In this document: in pieces, positions 3,003 to 50,226 of the stretch | How the letters are laid out: every line of letters starts with the position of its first letter | Position numbering within the stretch: position 1 is the stretch's first letter | Source: Deinococcales bacterium | Lineage (GTDB): Bacteria > Deinococcota > Deinococci > Deinococcales > JAAFIG01 | Direction: 5' to 3' | Assembly (NCBI GenBank): GCA_013298185.1 | Contig: JAAFJQ010000001.1 | Span: forward strand, 26,272 to 85,761 | DNA: 59,490 nt | Made by a program: the position numbers and the translations under genes | Notes under the pieces: model-generated | Told to the model about the DNA's origin: nothing | What the model saw: only the letters and a program-made list of their open reading frames with translations | The model's database searches: none

Positions 3003-3422
3003 ATGAGCCACACCAAAAACCAAATTGATGTGACCGTCGAAGTGGTCTACTCACCAAAACATTCGACGCCAACACAATTTTTCTATATTTACTTCATTGC
3101 CATGCACAACCACGGAACGCAAAGCGCTCAGTTGTTGCGTCGTCATTTTTTTATTCGCAATGCCTTTGGTTTTGAACAAGAAGTCGAAGGCGAAGGCGTG
3201 GTTGGCGAACAACCAACCATTGCCCCAGAACAGATTTATCGTTATTTCAGTGGAGTCCCGATAGACCACCCACCCGGCACAATGCGTGGCGAGTACACGT
3301 TCAAAGCAGCTGACGGTCAAGAATTTGTGGCTGTACTACCAGAATTTGCGCTGCTCGAGCCTCCGGGGTATGTGCCGACCAACCAAGCGCCGCTCGAGAC
3401 TGGGAAGCGGATTTTGAATTAG
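3003..3422 (+). CDS. apaG: ApaG (DUF525) protein
   Basis: 139 aa. The pattern FFYIYFIAMHNHG..LLRRHFFI..GEGVVGEQP..Y.S..P....GTMRGEY matches the ApaG fold family. Confidence 0.85.
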   Translation: MSHTKNQIDVTVEVVYSPKHSTPTQFFYIYFIAMHNHGTQSAQLLRRHFFIRNAFGFEQEVEGEGVVGEQPTIAPEQIYRYFSGVPIDHPPGTMRGEYTFKAADGQEFVAVLPEFALLEPPGYVPTNQAPLETGKRILN

Positions 3423-3427
3423 TTGTT

Positions 3428-3505
3428 AAGTACAGTGTCAACTAAGTGCGGAGACTATTTTCCGCTTCGCTCCAAAGAGTCTCCGCACTCATCGACACTG
3501 TACTT
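3428..3505. repeat. Long hairpin element A (12 bp + 11 bp perfect stems separated by an internal loop)
   Basis: AAGTACAGTGTC/GACACTGTACTT and GTGCGGAGACT/AGTCTCCGCAC pair perfectly. The element lies in a convergent intergenic spacer. Confidence 0.75.
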
Positions 3506-3550
3506 TAGTCATACTCGCATAGCTCGCCAAAAATCTACGATTTTTGTTGA

Positions 3551-3640
3551 CAGTGTATTAAGTGCAGCGTTTCGTAGGTCCTTACATTCTGCTTCCCAGA
3601 ATTGTCGGACAAAGAAGACGCTGCACTCTTTTCCACTCGC
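3551..3640. repeat. Degenerate second copy of hairpin element (B)
   Basis: It shares the 5' motif ACAGTGT-N-TAAGTGC and the 3' motif GCACTC-N5-CACT with element A. Its own stem is AGTGCAGCGT (3561-3570) paired with ACGCTGCACT (3618-3627). Confidence 0.5.
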
Positions 3641-3641
3641 A

Positions 3642-3689
3642 CGCCTCCCCACGCATTGCGGGGTCTAACCCCGTAAGCGCGGGGTGGCG
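3642..3689. other. Extended GC-rich hairpin C
   Basis: The outer stem pairs CGCCTCCCCACGC with GCGCGGGGTGGCG (2 mismatches). The inner stem is TTGCGGGG-tctaa-CCCCGTAA. Confidence 0.6.
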
Positions 3690-3806
3690 ATGCTCGGAAG
3701 TCATAAAGACTTCTGAAACAAAGCATTGAGTGCTAAACGCATTTTTTTAGGTTGTTTCAATCAGACTCGAGGCTCGAGCTGTTGGCAGGGGGGTTTAGCT
3801 GAACCC

Positions 3807-4616
3807 TTACGGTTGGGGTTTCCTTTGACGTATTCTCGGGTCGAGCTGTTGACGTAAACTTTCACTGATGCCAGTGATGCACAGCACCAATATCATGATC
3901 AATGCTCCGGGCAGCAAACTCAGCCACCAAATACCAGAAAAAAGGTAGCTGTAGCCTCTTGAAACCATTGCACCTAGGCTTGGGGTGTCAACACCAACAC
4001 CAACGCCTAGAAAAGATAAACTCGCCTCGAGCAGCACATTTTGTGGGAAGTCCAAGCTGATTTGCAGTAAAATTCCACTACCAATGTTGGGTAGCACATG
4101 GCGCAGGATTCGCCACTGGTTCGCACCTAGGGCTTTTGCTGATAGCACATACTCGAGTTCTCGTTGCACCAGAACAGTGGCTCGGGTGTACCGCGCAAAG
4201 CCAGCCCAACCAAAAACGCCAATCACCACGATTAAATTCAGCAACCCCGATCCAAGAAAAGTCAGGCTGACCAGTGCCAGTAGTACATTGGGCAGTGCCA
4301 TTTGAACTTCGGTGGCTCGCATGATGACTTGCTCGAGCCAACCACCGCGCAAACCTGCCAATAAGCCAAGTGGTACGCCAATCAAGGCAGACACCAGACT
4401 GCACACCATACCAACCAACAAGGATGTGCCTAAACCGTGTAACAGCAATGCAAACAGGTTGCGTCCAAGTTCATCTGTGCCAAGTGGGGTTGCCAGCGCC
4501 TGAAATGGTGGGCGTAGCGTCTCGAGCAGATTTTGGGCGTTGGGATTGGGGTACAGCACTGGCGCGAGTAGCGCCAAGCCCATCAAGCAAAGCAGCACCG
4601 CAACCTTTCTAGCCAT
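3807..4616 (-). CDS. ABC transporter permease, DppC/OppC family
   Basis: 269 aa, multi-TM, with a binding-protein-dependent transport inner-membrane component pattern. It overlaps the upstream permease by 8 nt. Confidence 0.85.
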   Translation of the reverse strand: MARKVAVLLCLMGLALLAPVLYPNPNAQNLLETLRPPFQALATPLGTDELGRNLFALLLHGLGTSLLVGMVCSLVSALIGVPLGLLAGLRGGWLEQVIMRATEVQMALPNVLLALVSLTFLGSGLLNLIVVIGVFGWAGFARYTRATVLVQRELEYVLSAKALGANQWRILRHVLPNIGSGILLQISLDFPQNVLLEASLSFLGVGVGVDTPSLGAMVSRGYSYLFSGIWWLSLLPGALIMILVLCITGISESLRQQLDPRIRQRKPQP

Positions 4617-5529
4617 AACGCACTCGAGGGTCTATCAGGAGGTATGCCACATCGGTCAGTAAATTGATGCTGGCGTAAAAAAAGGCACTGAGCAGAACAA
4701 AACTCAAAATCACAGGGGTGTCCAAACGGGTCAGGGCATCGAGTGCGACACGGTTCATTCCGGGGTAAGCGAACAAACTTTCGGTAATCACTGCGCCTGA
4801 TAACAAGCCCGCGAATTGCAAACCCAGCACCGTTACAAATGGCACAAGGGCATTGCGAAGCGCGTGGTGGTACACAATCTGGCGCTCGAGCATACCTTTG
4901 GCTCGAGCCGTGCAAATAAAGTCTTGGCTTAAAACCTCGAGTAAATACAGGCGCAGCAGTTGGGTGTAGACCGCTGCTCGAGGCAGGGCTAAAGTCAGAC
5001 TTGGTAGGATCAAATGCCAGATCGTGCCGCTTCCTTGGGATGGCAGTAGGCGCCATTGAACAGCAAAAACGTAGATCAGCAGCATCCCAATCCAAAAGGT
5101 TGGGGCGCTTAAGATCATGCTGCTCAGGTTGAGGATGATGGTGTCCCACCTCGAGCCAACCCGTGTGGCGCTCCAAACCCCAAGCGGAATGCCGATCAGC
5201 AGTGCTAAACCAAGTCCAAGGCTGACCAATTGCAAGGTGGCTGGTAAGCGCTCGAGCAGGATTTGCATGGCTGGTCGGGCGCTGTACATTGAGTTGCCTA
5301 AGTTGCCTTGGCTGGCGTTGAATAAAAAAAGCAAGTACTGTCCAAAGAACGGTTGTTCAAGACCATAAGCTCGGCGCAGGGTTTCCCGCTCGAGTGGGGT
5401 GGCATCTTCGGCGCTTAGAAAACCAATTGGGTCACCTGTGAGCTGCAAGCCAACAAAGGTCAGACTGACCACCAGCCACAGCACAAACAGGCTTTGTATG
5501 ACTCGAGAGAACAAAAATGCCACAAACAA
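4609..5529 (-). CDS. ABC transporter permease, DppB/OppB family
   Basis: 306 aa. The N-terminus VIQSLFVLWLVVSLTFVGLQLTGDP is typical of DppB/OppB. Confidence 0.85.
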   Translation of the reverse strand: MFVAFLFSRVIQSLFVLWLVVSLTFVGLQLTGDPIGFLSAEDATPLERETLRRAYGLEQPFFGQYLLFLFNASQGNLGNSMYSARPAMQILLERLPATLQLVSLGLGLALLIGIPLGVWSATRVGSRWDTIILNLSSMILSAPTFWIGMLLIYVFAVQWRLLPSQGSGTIWHLILPSLTLALPRAAVYTQLLRLYLLEVLSQDFICTARAKGMLERQIVYHHALRNALVPFVTVLGLQFAGLLSGAVITESLFAYPGMNRVALDALTRLDTPVILSFVLLSAFFYASINLLTDVAYLLIDPRVRYG

Positions 5530-25874: not shown

Positions 25875-26594
25875 TTAATCTTCGCCGAGGTACTTTTTAC
25901 GCACGGCTTCGTTGTTTTTCAAATCTTCGCCTGTACCTTGTAGCACGATCTCGCCGGTTTGCAACACATAACCTCGGTTGGAAATGCCAAGTGCCATCAG
26001 TGCGTTTTGTTCGACCAACAAAATGGTTTTACCAGCTTTGTTGAGGGCAACCACACTGTCAAAAATGGTTTCGACGAACAGTGGGCTTAGACCCATGCTT
26101 GGTTCGTCCAGCAAAATCAATTCGGGGTCTATCATCAAAGCCCTAGCAAACGCCAGCATTTGCTGCTCACCGCCAGATAACGTGCCTCCAAGTTGGCTTT
26201 GGCGTTCACGCAAACGTGGGAAAATCTCAAAGCCTTGCTGCATTCGCTTGGTAATCAGGTTACGGTCTTTAACGGTGTATGCGCCTAACTCGAGGTTTTC
26301 TTTGACAGTTAAACGCGGGAAAATTCGCCGTCCTTCGGGAACATGGGCTAAGCCCTTGGTGACAATTTCGTGTGGGGCAACCGAGTTGAGGTTCTGTCCC
26401 TTGTACTTCACATAACCTTGCTTGGGTGGCTTAAGCATTGAAATCGTGCGAAGCGTGGTGGTTTTGCCAGCCCCGTTACCACCAATCAAACAGACAATTT
26501 CGCCTTTGTTGACGGTGAAAGTTAAGCCTTTTAAGGCATGAATCTGCCCATAATAGGTGTGCAGGTCGTTAATCTCGAGCATCACTTCACTCAT
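25875..26594 (-). CDS. livF: Branched-chain amino acid ABC transporter ATP-binding protein LivF
   Basis: Walker A GGNGAGKTT, signature LSGGEQQML, Walker B ILLDEPS. Confidence 0.9.
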   Translation of the reverse strand: MSEVMLEINDLHTYYGQIHALKGLTFTVNKGEIVCLIGGNGAGKTTTLRTISMLKPPKQGYVKYKGQNLNSVAPHEIVTKGLAHVPEGRRIFPRLTVKENLELGAYTVKDRNLITKRMQQGFEIFPRLRERQSQLGGTLSGGEQQMLAFARALMIDPELILLDEPSMGLSPLFVETIFDSVVALNKAGKTILLVEQNALMALGISNRGYVLQTGEIVLQGTGEDLKNNEAVRKKYLGED

Positions 26595-47048: not shown

Positions 47049-47471
47049 TCAGTACCCATAACCAAGCTCTTGGGCTTCTTTAGAGAGTTTTCCCATGATC
47101 TCGAGACTTTTTTTGCGCTGCGCTTCTTTGTACCGTAGCGCATCCTCGAGCAGTACCCGCCGATGTGTGCCAACCATATGAAATGGCAATTTGCCTTCTT
47201 GCAAAAGTTGTACCACATAAGGACGGGAAACATTGAGCAATTCTGCTGTTTCAGCCGTGGTTAAATCGGATTCCTTACTTAGCACACTAACCTGTTTGCC
47301 ATTGGCAACTTGTGTGACCACCTCGAGCATGATTTGCAACACGTTTTTTGGCAAGGTGATTTGTTCAGAACCGATTTGCAATTGGGTGCTATATCCTTTG
47401 TGCTGTGCGAATAAACGACTTAGTTCTCGAGCTGCTTTGATGTCATTGGGTTTTAGGGTTTGAGAGTTCAT
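47049..47471 (-). CDS. Excisionase-type (HTH_17/MerR-like) DNA-binding protein, antitoxin-like
   Basis: LTTAETAELLNVSRPYVVQLLQEGKLPFHMVGTHRRVLLEDALRYK is the helix-turn-helix of the excisionase family. The ATG at 47471 is the likely start. It ends 77 nt upstream of jetA on the same strand. Confidence 0.7.
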   Translation of the reverse strand: MNSQTLKPNDIKAARELSRLFAQHKGYSTQLQIGSEQITLPKNVLQIMLEVVTQVANGKQVSVLSKESDLTTAETAELLNVSRPYVVQLLQEGKLPFHMVGTHRRVLLEDALRYKEAQRKKSLEIMGKLSKEAQELGYGY

Positions 47472-47594
47472 GCTTAGAGTGTAGTAAATAAGTGTAATAA
47501 ATGCAATAAACAAAACAGATTTTCAAGGCTCAATGTAGAGTACCTGATGCTTTTAGGCTCAAGGCTGCCAAACGCATTGTGGAAATCACAACGC

Positions 47595-47704
47595 CCCACC
47601 CATTCGGGTAGGGCGATTTTCCTATCCAATCAGGTGAGGTTGCAACTACTCAAAACCTTCAAAATACCTGCATCTCGAGAAGACTCGAGCAGGAGGAAAA
47701 CCCC
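47595..47704 (+). promoter_or_regulatory. Conserved structured leader, copy A (upstream of NTF2-like gene 1)
   Basis: It is about 91% identical to 48696-48804 right up to the ATG, while the downstream CDSs are highly diverged. Predicted hairpins are CCCACCC/GGGTAGGG, GAGGTT/AACCTT and CTCGAG-aaga-CTCGAG, adjacent to the AGGAGG RBS. Confidence 0.6.
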
Positions 47705-48127
47705 ATGAATAAACTTGCCAAAATCGTTTTCGCAACTCTCGCCCTGAGCATCAGCGCTCCAATCTTGCTCACCAGCACAATGGCGCAAACCACTGCCACA
47801 ACAGTTAGCACCGCCCCCACCGAAGTGATCGCCCGTTTTGTTAAGGCTTTGAACAGCAATGATGCCAAAGCCATCAAAGCCGCGTTTGCCCCCAATGCTT
47901 GGACGGCGTATGGTGAAAATGGTGCGCGTAAAACAGGTGATGCGTTCATGGTTTGGCTCGAGAGTGACATCATCCGCGTTAAAGGCAAACTCGAGGTGAG
48001 CAGCAAAACCGTTAGTGGCAACGCTGTGACTGTTCAAGGGCGTTACTCTTCGACGGGTTGGAGCGGCAATGCCAAGTATGTTTTTACGGTGCAGAATGGT
48101 TTGATTGCTTCTTGGTTACTACTCTAA
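47705..48127 (+). CDS. Secreted NTF2-fold (SnoaL-like) protein 1
   Basis: 140 aa with a signal peptide, then VIARFVKALNSNDAKAIKAAFAPNA.., typical of the first helix of SnoaL/NTF2-like domains. Confidence 0.5.
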   Translation: MNKLAKIVFATLALSISAPILLTSTMAQTTATTVSTAPTEVIARFVKALNSNDAKAIKAAFAPNAWTAYGENGARKTGDAFMVWLESDIIRVKGKLEVSSKTVSGNAVTVQGRYSSTGWSGNAKYVFTVQNGLIASWLLL

Positions 48128-48147
48128 AGGCTCGAGAGGTGCATCTT

Positions 48148-48537
48148 ATGAAATATATTGCTTTGCTTTTCGCCTTGCTGCTCGGAATCTCAAGCGCTCA
48201 GCAAAACAAACCCGCCGCCAAAGACATTCCTGCCGCTTACGTCAAAGCCGTAAGTGACAAGAACCTCGATGCTTTTGCCGCACTTTTTAACGAAGATGCA
48301 GTCTTTAACGACCTTGGCACAATCAACCGTGGACGCAGCGCGATTCGGGAATTTGGTGGGAAGATTGTTGATTTCCAAGGCAAGTATGTCACTCGAGAAG
48401 TGCTGGTCAATGGCGAGAGAATCACATGGTTGTTTAATTTCACAGGCGGCGGCGGCGGTTACCGTTTGCGTGGTCAGGGGGATTTTGTACTGAAGAACGG
48501 CTTGATTCAGAATTTAGTCATCCAATCACAGCGATAA
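48148..48537 (+). CDS. Secreted NTF2-fold (SnoaL-like) protein 2
   Basis: The ATG at 48148 follows GAGAGG. Signal peptide MKYIALLFALLLGISSA, then AYVKAVSDKNLDAFAALFNEDAVFND. Confidence 0.6.
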   Translation: MKYIALLFALLLGISSAQQNKPAAKDIPAAYVKAVSDKNLDAFAALFNEDAVFNDLGTINRGRSAIREFGGKIVDFQGKYVTREVLVNGERITWLFNFTGGGGGYRLRGQGDFVLKNGLIQNLVIQSQR

Positions 48538-48541
48538 AATT

Positions 48542-48592
48542 CAAAAAACGAGACTCGAGGGCAGTCATTCCACCCTCGAGTCTCGTTTTTTG
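48542..48592. terminator. Bidirectional terminator, 20-bp perfect inverted repeat
   Basis: CAAAAAACGAGACTCGAGGG-(11 nt)-CCCTCGAGTCTCGTTTTTTG. Confidence 0.85.
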
Positions 48593-48695
48593 AATGATGG
48601 AGGTCAAGAACGGTCTGAATGGGGTTCTTGCTACAGCACTGCAAACCAAGATTTTATTGTCTCGAGACTGATGGCTCATGGCTGTTGCAAGCTCA

Positions 48696-48804
48696 CCCAC
48701 CCATTTGGGTAGGGCGCTATTCCTATCCAATCAGGTGAGGTTACAACCACGTAAAACCTTCAAAATACCTGCATCTCGAGAGGACTCGAGCAGGAGGAAA
48801 CCCT
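48696..48804 (+). promoter_or_regulatory. Conserved structured leader, copy B (upstream of NTF2-like gene 3)
   Basis: See copy A. All of the roughly 10 differences fall in predicted loops or linkers and none in the three predicted stems. Confidence 0.6.
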
Positions 48805-49203
48805 ATGAAAAAAATGTTTGTTGGTCTGACCGTGTTCTTCGCCGCGCTTTTCGCTTTTGCCCAAGCTCAGAATGCCGTGCCAAACGATTTGCAAACCCTG
48901 ACCCGCAATTGGACAAGCACCATCAACAAAGCTGATTTAGACGGTTGGCTCGAGTTGCACAGTGAAAACATTGATTACGCCGATTACACTTGGTGGGTTG
49001 GTAAATCCCGCACTGAAATGCGTCGTTGGGGACAAGCGATTGTTGCTGCGAAGGGGCAGTTCACCATCACCAGCAGCCAAATACAAGGCGCGAACCTTGT
49101 TTGGATGCTCGAGTATAAGGATTCTGGTTTCTCAAATAAAAGTAAAGCTGTGGTGACGATGCAAAACGGCAAAATTAACAAACTTGTGATTGGCTCGAGG
49201 TGA
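48805..49203 (+). CDS. Secreted NTF2-fold protein 3
   Basis: 132 aa with a signal peptide, then LTRNWTSTINKADLDGWLELHSENIDY.., an NTF2/SnoaL-like pattern. Confidence 0.5.
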   Translation: MKKMFVGLTVFFAALFAFAQAQNAVPNDLQTLTRNWTSTINKADLDGWLELHSENIDYADYTWWVGKSRTEMRRWGQAIVAAKGQFTITSSQIQGANLVWMLEYKDSGFSNKSKAVVTMQNGKINKLVIGSR

Positions 49204-49207
49204 AATC

Positions 49208-49822
49208 ATGAATCCGCTTCGTTACCTTGCCGTGCTTGCCTTGCTGATTTGCACCGCAGTCCTCGCACAAAACAATGCTCGAGACCGCATTGTTTACCCC
49301 AATGACTTTCGCCGTACCATGAGTTTGTACACCACAATTGACCGGGCTGATGGCAAGGTTTACGAAATTTTTATCAACCGCACTGCCCTCGAGACTTGGC
49401 GAACCGAACGGCGCTTACCGCATGGCACGCAATTTGTGATTGAGTCGTTTAGCGCTGGGCGCAACGCCAATGGGCAACTGCTGCGCAATGCTCGAGGACG
49501 TTTGGTCAAAGGCGCTTCGGATAATGAAATTCATGTTTCCGAGAAACGCACCGATTGGACAGGCTCGGAGCAAATGACCACAGGCAATGTCTTTGGCACA
49601 CCCACACAAAACGGACGTTGGCGTATGGCTGCTTTCGATCCTCGAGATGGGCGCAGTGTGAGTGTGAATGTCGCCGAGTGCCATCAGTGCCATCAGGATG
49701 CACGGGCGGAGGATTTTATCCTCTCGAGGGGCTTATTGGATGGTTTTGCGCGTTCAAATCAGCCGAGTTACATTTCATTTTCTTGTGGTCAACGCGAGAT
49801 TTGTTTTGGTTCACTGCGTTAA
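49208..49822 (+). CDS. Cytochrome P460-family haem protein
   Basis: Signal peptide, then ..IVYPNDFRRTMSLYTTIDR..KVYEIFIN..A... and the haem c motif AECHQCH near the C-terminus. The ATG at 49208 lies 5 nt after the upstream stop. Confidence 0.7.
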   Translation: MNPLRYLAVLALLICTAVLAQNNARDRIVYPNDFRRTMSLYTTIDRADGKVYEIFINRTALETWRTERRLPHGTQFVIESFSAGRNANGQLLRNARGRLVKGASDNEIHVSEKRTDWTGSEQMTTGNVFGTPTQNGRWRMAAFDPRDGRSVSVNVAECHQCHQDARAEDFILSRGLLDGFARSNQPSYISFSCGQREICFGSLR

Positions 49823-50226
49823 AAACCAATTTAATTCACAAATTATTTGTGTTGTCTACACAGATTAAGTTTACGCCACCTTGCGTTTGCTCAAGGAGAA
49901 CGCAGGGAACTAAGGCTTCAAGGTGATGTGGTCAAAAGGCTTGTCTCAGAAACATACTTGCTCGAGAAGGGTGTTTACCCGCTTCAGTGGAAAACCCTTG
50001 ATTTCATTCGCAACATTGCCTTGCTGGTGGCAGGTGTGGTGGCATTGCTGGGAAGCGTGATGTGGTGGCGTTTATCGCGTGTGCCAAGACCGATTTTGTC
50101 AAAAGCTGTTTGATTGAATCCTCGAGGAGGGCTTTTTTATCCTGTTAAGAAGGTGTGATGCGCTGCTTGGCATTTGAGAATTTGGTTTTTGTTGTAAATA
50201 TTCTTTAGCCGCCTGATGGCAATATT

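Follow-up and report, generated by a model that had tools for sequence, protein, structure and literature searches.

Two non-coding stretches of about 110 nt in the genome of a Deinococcales bacterium (assembly GCA_013298185.1, contig JAAFJQ010000001.1) are nearly identical, and the genes that they precede have little in common. What keeps these leaders alike, and what do they do? The pair lies in a segment of 59,490 nt (positions 26,272 to 85,761 of the contig, forward strand), called the window here, and coordinates without a contig or locus name refer to it. The first leader stands ahead of the gene for a protein that we call S1, and the second ahead of the gene for S3, which is followed by a cytochrome P460 gene; a further gene, S2, lies between them, and S1, S2 and S3 are all SnoaL/NTF2-like (SnoaL_2-like) proteins. 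A preliminary description of the locus drew three RNA stems in the leaders, P1, P3 and P4, and took these for either a cis-regulatory RNA or a shared operator/promoter module. The findings below favor the module and speak against the RNA. We propose that each leader is probably one copy of a duplicated, activator-dependent promoter/operator module that carries a short, hairpin-capped 5' untranslated region (UTR), serves a small regulon, and is kept alike within the genome by gene conversion.

How similar are the two leaders, and where does the similarity end? Local alignment of 47595-47713 with 48696-48813 gives 119 columns with 10 substitutions and one single-base indel, which bears out the likeness of about 91% first noted for the leaders. 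The similarity begins precisely at CCCACCC and fades 9 nt inside the coding sequences, so that the earlier observation that it stops at the ATG is right apart from these few nucleotides. The proteins behind the leaders do share little sequence, as had been said: S1 and S3 are 33% identical over merely 46 residues, and the identity is 21% for S2 versus S3 and likewise for S1 versus S2. By inspection, all 11 differences lie outside the three stems that had been drawn, and none of the 11 falls in a column that is invariant across the wider family described next (hypergeometric p ~0.04, a weak value). BLAST found no further copy in the organism's own 4.4-Mb genome, so the leader is not a dispersed repeat.

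Is the leader found in other genomes? Simple searches would have missed it. A BLAST search with the leader against 60 relatives gave no match, and exact-word scans with two 21-mers from the leader gave nothing in genome or metagenome contig collections. A degenerate 46-nt pattern hit 6 and 8 loci, and these were set aside as chance matches, having no P1, no richness in the hexamer CTCGAG and unrelated hosts. Homologs surfaced only through covariance models combined with protein-guided retrieval: orthologs of S1 and S3 were found by protein searches, and the leaders on their contigs were used to build two covariance models, R1 and R2. The family so defined has 16 covariance-model matches, 15 of them distinct, plus one in the genome G007. 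Its hosts are the organism's own genome, a few relatives, and metagenome contigs from an uncultured clade of Deinococcales that is rich in CTCGAG; in an order-wide search of 363 genomes, credible R1 matches were confined to the window's own family. The covariance model also found a third, diverged copy in the own genome, on contig C158 (locus L081) 5' of a secreted alpha/beta-hydrolase, which makes three copies there in all. Among the other members, the copies in G014, G016 and G018 lie 5' of an HTH_Crp_2 protein, that of G007 lies between a GAF-PAS-GerE regulator gene and SnoaL_4, that of locus L032 lies 5' of a TAT-signal protein, and four further copies are on contigs fetched through homologs of the hydrolase. 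The genes 3' of modules thus encode S1, S3, SnoaL_4, another SnoaL_2, the secreted alpha/beta-hydrolase, the TAT-signal protein and the HTH_Crp_2 protein. Genome-wide scans of the own genome for dyad sites (YACCC-N4-GGGTR), or for dyad 2 with a -10 box (both described below), gave no convincing further member. We note that contig C57 (22340-22420, minus strand) has three tandem ACCC-N4-GGGT-like dyads, TACCCAAATGGGTA, CCCCCAATTGGGTA and CCCCAATTGGGG, 5' of a gene start; these may be related operators, although the family model does not match them.

A comparison of the window with locus L026 shows how strongly the element is held. The leader is 78.6% identical between the two, versus 43% for the spacer just upstream and 66% (S3) and 59% (P460) for third codon positions. 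Leader identity so far above that of the spacer and of third codon positions argues for purifying selection on the element. The earlier suggestion that conservation of this non-coding DNA points to function is therefore upheld, both by the constraint relative to L026 and by the existence of a family of at least 16 copies.

What kind of element does the conservation describe? The family alignment has no gaps from a conserved block (CTAYC...GGGYGAGGT) to about 10 nt past a hexamer, and the distance from alignment position G48 to T77 is 29 nt in 12 of the 12 sequences measured. On the 3' side of the block, whose sequence forms the second of two dyads, just two columns are invariant among the 15 distinct members, the A in second and the T in sixth place of the hexamer (NANNNT). 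The hexamer itself takes the forms CAAAAT, GAAAAT, GAAGAT, GACAAT, CAAACT, CATACT, TAGACT and TAAACT. Exactly 7 nt after its T there is a YR dinucleotide, mostly CA and, in genus g5, TG; in the own hydrolase copy this step is displaced by 1 nt. Read as a promoter, the hexamer and the YR spacing have the geometry of a -10 element (A-11, T-7) followed by a predicted transcription start, and A and T in these two places, with a purine start 6-8 nt further on, are what a sigma-70 promoter calls for. No TTGACA-like -35 hexamer is present at 16-18 bp; the conserved GGGYGAGGT is there instead. At 17-bp spacing the hexamer reads AGGTTG or AGGTAA, and a TTGCAA lies merely 14 bp from the -10. An absent -35 hexamer is the picture expected of an activator-dependent promoter. 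Other promoter classes were considered by eye and rejected: for sigma-54 (GG-N10-GC) and for an ECF-type promoter (-35 GCAAC, -10 CGT) either the spacing or the -10 is wrong, and family members do not share the motifs. The predicted 5'UTR is 33 nt long, and the sequences past the predicted start differ in length and content across the family. In L026, P1 begins 5 nt after the upstream stop codon, which leaves no room for a promoter further upstream.

Upstream of the predicted core promoter are the two dyads. Dyad 1, the P1 of the preliminary description, is an 18-bp pattern, CYACCC-N4-GGGTRG, that is kept in 15 copies. Dyad 2 is an imperfect second copy of dyad 1, in which CTAYC lies opposite GGYGAG (92% of cells paired); the half-site CYACC occurs in both. 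Dyad 2 contains an invariant C, A and G and a near-invariant GG..GGT. As a dyad, then, P1 stands; as an RNA stem it fares less well, in that most of the changes that look compensatory agree with Y and R degeneracy arising independently in the two half-sites. At pair 9:22 the counts are UA 8, UG 3, CG 1 and CA 3, versus 8.1, 2.9, 1.1 and 2.9 expected if Y and R vary independently, and the counts at pair 45:59 likewise equal this expectation. Such a match to independence is as expected of two half-sites that are read by one protein. The sole true flip, C-G to G-C at P1 pair 11:20, is a single event in genus g5.

The spacing of the dyads is equally informative. From the center of P1 to the T of the -10 hexamer the distance is 61.5 nt in most copies, 62.5 nt in G007, 51.5 nt in the hydrolase-type copies and 71.5 nt in L032, so that 10 of the 12 measured copies are in the 61.5/62.5 class; from dyad 2 to the same T it is constant. 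The P1 center thus lies at -68.5, -58.5 or -78.5 from the predicted start, and a dyad site is held at a fixed helical phase to the core promoter. Two independent indels of exactly 10 bp, one helical turn, point to a constraint on DNA, not on RNA.

These features suggest how the module may work. Each 110-nt repeat would be a complete expression module that acts mainly as DNA. A dimeric activator would bind the dyads and recruit RNA polymerase to a promoter that has no -35 box, the right arm of dyad 2 and its flank (GGGYGAGGT) taking the place of that box; the -10 would be CAAAAT and the start would be at the CA. The resulting 33-nt 5'UTR would open with a stem-loop, CTCGAG-N4-CTCGAG, and carry an unpaired AGGAGG, the Shine-Dalgarno (SD) sequence. 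Finally, ectopic conversion would have homogenized the window copies after the split from the nearest sampled relative. This looks like ordinary gene regulation; it calls for no new regulatory RNA and for no new category of regulation.

Why are the window copies so much closer to each other than to their counterparts elsewhere? From P1 to the ATG, the S1 and S3 leaders of the window are about 90% identical to each other, and each is about 74% identical to the S3 leader of L026; to the S1 leaders of L028 and L035 they are 48-57% identical. The leaders cluster by genome, and neither window leader groups with its own gene's leaders. The duplication itself is old. L026 retains the same arrangement of S2 3' stump, terminator, leader and S3 as the window, which indicates that the S3 leader predates the lineage split, and since L028 and L035 have an S1 leader, the S1 leader is older still. 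Both leaders being older than the split, yet alike within the window, they were homogenized after it. Copies within the genome are thus closer to each other than to their positional orthologs, and the duplication predates the split. Ectopic conversion between promoter regions 1.1 kb apart, confined to the leader, is the best explanation of 91% versus about 75%, and we take the 91% identity to be gene conversion on top of purifying selection. Conversion runs only as far as homology, so the similarity stops at P1 and at the ATG. The preliminary description had considered a recent conversion tract that also covers flanking coding sequence, which would have removed the case for function; no such tract was found. 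In L026 the UTR of the S1 leader is 83% identical to that of the S3 leader and 66% identical to its positional ortholog, the S1 leader of the window, which suggests that partial homogenization of the leaders took place in the L026 lineage too.

Table 1. Features of the duplicated module and the adjoining genes (window coordinates; promoter elements are predictions)
Feature	Sequence or type	Position	Strand	Remark
Module copy 1, ahead of S1	promoter/operator + 5'UTR	47595..47704	+	84.4 bits, family model R2
Dyad 1 (P1), copy 1	CCCACCC-ATTC-GGGTAGG	47595..47612		centered -68.5 from predicted start; 90% of cells paired, 15 sequences
Dyad 2 / conserved block, copy 1	CTATCC-AATCA-GGTGAGGT	47622..47640		centered near -42, -35-box position
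Predicted -10 hexamer, copy 1	CAAAAT	47660..47665	+	spacing to dyad 2 constant, 29 nt
Predicted transcription start, copy 1	A of conserved CA, 7 nt after -10 T	47672	+	
5'-terminal hairpin (P4), copy 1	CTCGAG-AAGA-CTCGAG	47674..47689	+	
SD sequence of S1	AGGAGG	47691..47696	+	unpaired in centroid fold of predicted UTR
S1	SnoaL/NTF2-like, 140 aa	47705..48127	+	N-terminal signal-like segment
S2	SnoaL_2 protein, 129 aa	48148..48537	+	
Terminator of S1-S2 unit	strong hairpin then T-run, two CTCGAG words	48541..48590	+	kept in L026
Module copy 2, ahead of S3-P460	promoter/operator + 5'UTR	48696..48804	+	84.9 bits, family model R2
Dyad 1 (P1), copy 2		48696..48713		
Dyad 2 / conserved block, copy 2		48723..48741		
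Predicted -10 hexamer, copy 2	CAAAAT	48761..48766	+	
Predicted transcription start, copy 2		48773	+	
5'-terminal hairpin (P4), copy 2	CTCGAG-AGGA-CTCGAG	48775..48790	+	
SD sequence of S3	AGGAGG	48792..48797	+	
S3	SnoaL-like protein, 132 aa	48805..49203	+	
Cytochrome P460 family protein	PF16694, E 8e-16	49208..49822	+	CxxCH present

Could the leaders instead work as RNA? On that account the full 110 nt would be transcribed from a promoter farther upstream, hairpins at P1 and dyad 2 would bind a ligand or protein, and P4, or a pairing against the SD, would gate translation. Both copies do fold better than shuffled sequences (z -2.9 and -3.5), few shuffles attain the observed pairing scores of P1 and dyad 2 over the 15 sequences, U.G cells are commoner than C.A cells, the P1 flip can be counted as a compensatory change, and most members have a hairpin just ahead of the SD, with differing 5' arms. 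The individual stems do less well. The Rfam screen that had been called for matched neither leader (47400-48900, E up to 10), its only hits being the terminator, as a spurious mir-187, and a place inside S1. P3, one of the stems originally drawn, finds no support, with 67% of its cells paired versus 56-57% for partners slid one or two columns. P4 is a double CTCGAG word, and CTCGAG is the commonest hexamer here, with 388 occurrences in the window and 28,018 in the 4.4-Mb genome (6.4 per kb); it builds the terminator stems as well as 5'UTR hairpins. Genome-wide there are about 44 instances of CTCGAG-N3-8-CTCGAG with an SD and a start codon behind it, so P4 is a generic block and gives no evidence for a specific RNA element. 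In the predicted short UTR, P4 forms (about -7.4 kcal/mol) and leaves the SD free; the UTRs of relatives, with other sequences, likewise open with a hairpin. Two larger structures were tried and dropped. A nested fold from RNAalifold (A:D + B:C, six sequences) is broken by g5 and, at 79% paired, falls below the two separate dyads, and an anti-SD helix with UUUUCCU, seen when copy 1 is folded, is kept neither by copy 2 nor by relatives. The family does not show a set of helices that compensatory changes maintain. Nor would an RNA of this sort account for indels of exactly 10 nt or an invariant NANNNT-N6-YR, and it must contend with the independent variation at pairs 9:22 and 45:59. Conservation starts abruptly at P1 and the spacer upstream cannot be aligned, so that each copy would need a promoter of its own that is not conserved. 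We regard the RNA account as unlikely. The bolder form of it, a new cis-regulatory RNA restricted to this clade of Deinococcota, in which hairpins of P1 and CUAYC...GGYGAGG are read by a ligand or an RNA-binding protein, co-ordinate the secreted NTF2-like, P460 and hydrolase genes, and have spread by gene conversion as a portable cassette, seems to us a shade less likely again. A literature search on CTCGAG as an iterated palindrome and on the TACCC/GGGTA motif found nothing useful. A caution follows for other genomes in which one palindrome is hyper-abundant: hairpins built from it are not to be read as specific RNA structure.

Other accounts leave the promoter in place or dispense with function altogether. 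The downstream two thirds of the element might be a promoter, with P1 a hairpin, in RNA or DNA, that terminates or insulates upstream transcription and is no activator site. P1 is GC-rich, T-rich sequence often follows it (ATTTTCC, CTTTCC), it lies 5-63 nt past a co-directional stop codon in L026, G007, L028, L035 and the own hydrolase locus, and a scan called its minus-strand version at 47615-47592 terminator-like. On the plus strand the scan (GC-rich hairpin, at least 5 T in 8 nt) called neither P1 a terminator, and a T-run is missing from several copies (the hydrolase type has GGGTAGCTAC). Terminator stems normally lose their sequence across non-homologous loci and genera, and CYACCC..GGGTRG has been kept; window copy 1 lacks a co-directional gene upstream, copy 2 already follows the S1-S2 terminator, and the 10-bp phasing of P1 with the -10 box would go unexplained. 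We give this account little credence. Might the repeats be mobile, as MITE-like elements or attC-like cassette boundaries that shuffle SnoaL, P460 and hydrolase genes, their likeness being due to recent transposition or site-specific recombination? Gene order does differ in every genome (S2-S1-S3, S1-S2-S3, P460-S3, hydrolase-S1), and the element contains two imperfect inverted repeats. With just three copies in the 4.4-Mb genome, repeat ends that show neither terminal inverted repeats nor target-site duplications, no adjacent integrase or transposase, always the same orientation and distance to the SD and ATG, and the element kept in place between the window and L026, this seems very improbable. 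Least credible of all is a neutral relic, two functionless non-coding stretches left similar by recent segmental duplication or conversion. Clustering of the leaders by genome does show recent copying, but conservation between orthologs far exceeds that of the neighboring spacer and third codon positions, homologous modules stand at unrelated genes in other genera, and the differences between the window copies avoid the family-invariant columns.

The activator-dependent module has its own difficulties. An RNA hairpin can be drawn for either dyad (90% of cells paired for P1, 92% for dyad 2), with some positions changed in both arms, and the C-G to G-C change in genus g5 is a true flip. The 10-bp indels amount to two events only. 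By E. coli standards the -10 hexamer is weak, and a consensus promoter scan called none here. As to the regulator discussed next, the LuxR-type gene of the own genome, on contig C33, is unlinked to any module copy, and the g5 genomes have the module and no ortholog of the regulator at E<=1e-30.

Which protein would read the dyads? In L026 and G007 a module copy follows the end of a GAF-PAS-GerE (LuxR-type) gene, at a distance of 5 nt and 22 nt respectively. Within the genus an ortholog is found only in the own genome (G000, C33:1720-2880, 87% identity) and in G007, and these two are also the only ones among the 8 genus genomes that carry the module. Judging from this linkage and co-occurrence, the activator is most likely the GAF-PAS-LuxR/GerE protein, represented in the own genome by C33:1720-2880. 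We note that an extended -10, TTTGTATAAT, stops about 10 nt short of the ATG of this gene (C33:1690-1722), so that canonical -10 boxes are in use in this genome; the regulator's mRNA is probably leaderless or nearly so. The module picks out a small regulon, most of whose products have a signal peptide: SnoaL-like proteins, cytochrome P460 and an alpha/beta-hydrolase, to which relatives add a TAT-signal protein and a Crp-like regulator. Homologs of the own hydrolase (gene at C158:2626-3621) are fused to SnoaL_2 or SnoaL_4 in other taxa (P0039, P0043, P0052, P0057, P0058, P0062, P0073, P0130), a Rosetta-stone hint which suggests that the hydrolase and the NTF2-like proteins of the regulon act together.

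How does the proposed module compare with known systems? It resembles activator-dependent sigma-70 promoters (class I and II promoters, as for CRP, and above all those with LuxR/FixJ-type activators such as BglJ-RcsB of E. coli) in having a dyad upstream and a poor or absent -35. The second site, near -42, is where class II promoters have theirs, and the lux box at -42.5 is an analogue of that position. Unlike in class I and II systems, the dyads of the module are 26.5 bp apart, a non-integral number of helical turns. BglJ-RcsB, a LuxR-family pair, has sites 65-68, 57 and 76-79 bp upstream of the start, which its authors interpret as phasing-dependent recruitment of RNA polymerase (PMC3950696), and the three classes of site center, one helical turn apart, are paralleled here by -58.5, -68.5 and -78.5. 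The half-site CYACC(C), however, is neither an RcsB site nor a lux box, and the regulator and start are predictions here. A further likeness is to the sites of NarL-type regulators, in the half-site TACCC and in the GerE-type helix-turn-helix of the candidate regulator. NarL-type 7-2-7 heptamer sites are TACYYMT inverted repeats; their TACYY-N6-RRGTA differs from TACCC-N4-GGGTA here, and the candidate lacks a receiver domain, its sensor domains being GAF and PAS.

In its transcribed part the module recalls the ompA-type 5'-terminal stem-loops that stabilize bacterial mRNAs: the predicted 5' end is followed, after 2 nt, by a 6-bp hairpin and then by an accessible SD. The stem here differs in being two genome-wide CTCGAG words, and its stabilizing role would be by analogy. 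With riboswitches and other Rfam leaders it shares a conserved non-coding stretch directly 5' of the SD and predicted hairpins; it differs from them in matching no Rfam family, in having no multi-stem core supported by covariation, and in conserved positions that fit promoter geometry. The concerted evolution of the leaders has its counterpart in rRNA operons and tuf genes, which evolve in concert by gene conversion and where copies within a genome are also more alike than positional orthologs. Here, by contrast, the converted tract is a promoter/UTR of about 110 bp between coding sequences that cannot be aligned as DNA.

The surroundings of the module vary from locus to locus. In L026 the order is LuxR-type gene, SnoaL_4, S1, S2 disrupted by an APH gene, terminator, leader, S3, P460, AKR. 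Within 3361-4815 of that locus the APH-like (PF01636) gene splits S2 into a 64-aa N-terminal stump on one side and a 3' stump on the other, the latter directly preceding the conserved terminator. L028 has the order hydrolase, S2-like, leader, S1, S3, P460, YceI, with a gap of merely 25 nt between S1 and S3, and L035 has hydrolase, leader, S1, S2. Downstream of P460 in the window (49822-50113), the open reading frame 49847-50113 is an internal piece of a YceI-like protein (..LQGDVV..) joined to the C-terminus of the next gene's product (..SETYLLEK..PLQWKTL..). Both genes are intact in L028 (3725-4635) and in G007 (L023, 330-1315), and the frame looks like a deletion scar. In G007, a genome of the same genus, P460 has been reduced to a C-terminal stump (L023, 1492-1698, minus strand) that has HHQYY in place of the CxxCH haem motif and is a pseudogene remnant. 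L032 has an odd run of GTCGAAAG / GTCGAAGG repeats between its P460 gene and its S3-like gene (360-440). The closest homolog of S3 (88% identity; L027, GCA_965184975.1) is preceded by 102 nt (L027, 1-102) that contain no module, and P460 is missing downstream, so S3 also occurs outside this regulatory context.

What would the module mean for these bacteria? If our proposal is right, it gives an uncultured, CTCGAG-saturated clade of Deinococcales a concrete, testable regulon, with a defined operator half-site, CYACC, predicted transcription starts and a candidate GAF-PAS-LuxR sensor-regulator. It would give a common thread to the secreted NTF2-like proteins, cytochrome P460 and an alpha/beta-hydrolase, a cluster that has otherwise gone unexplained. 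The leader pair would also be a small, clean example of concerted evolution, not of a gene but of promoter-UTR modules common to non-homologous genes.

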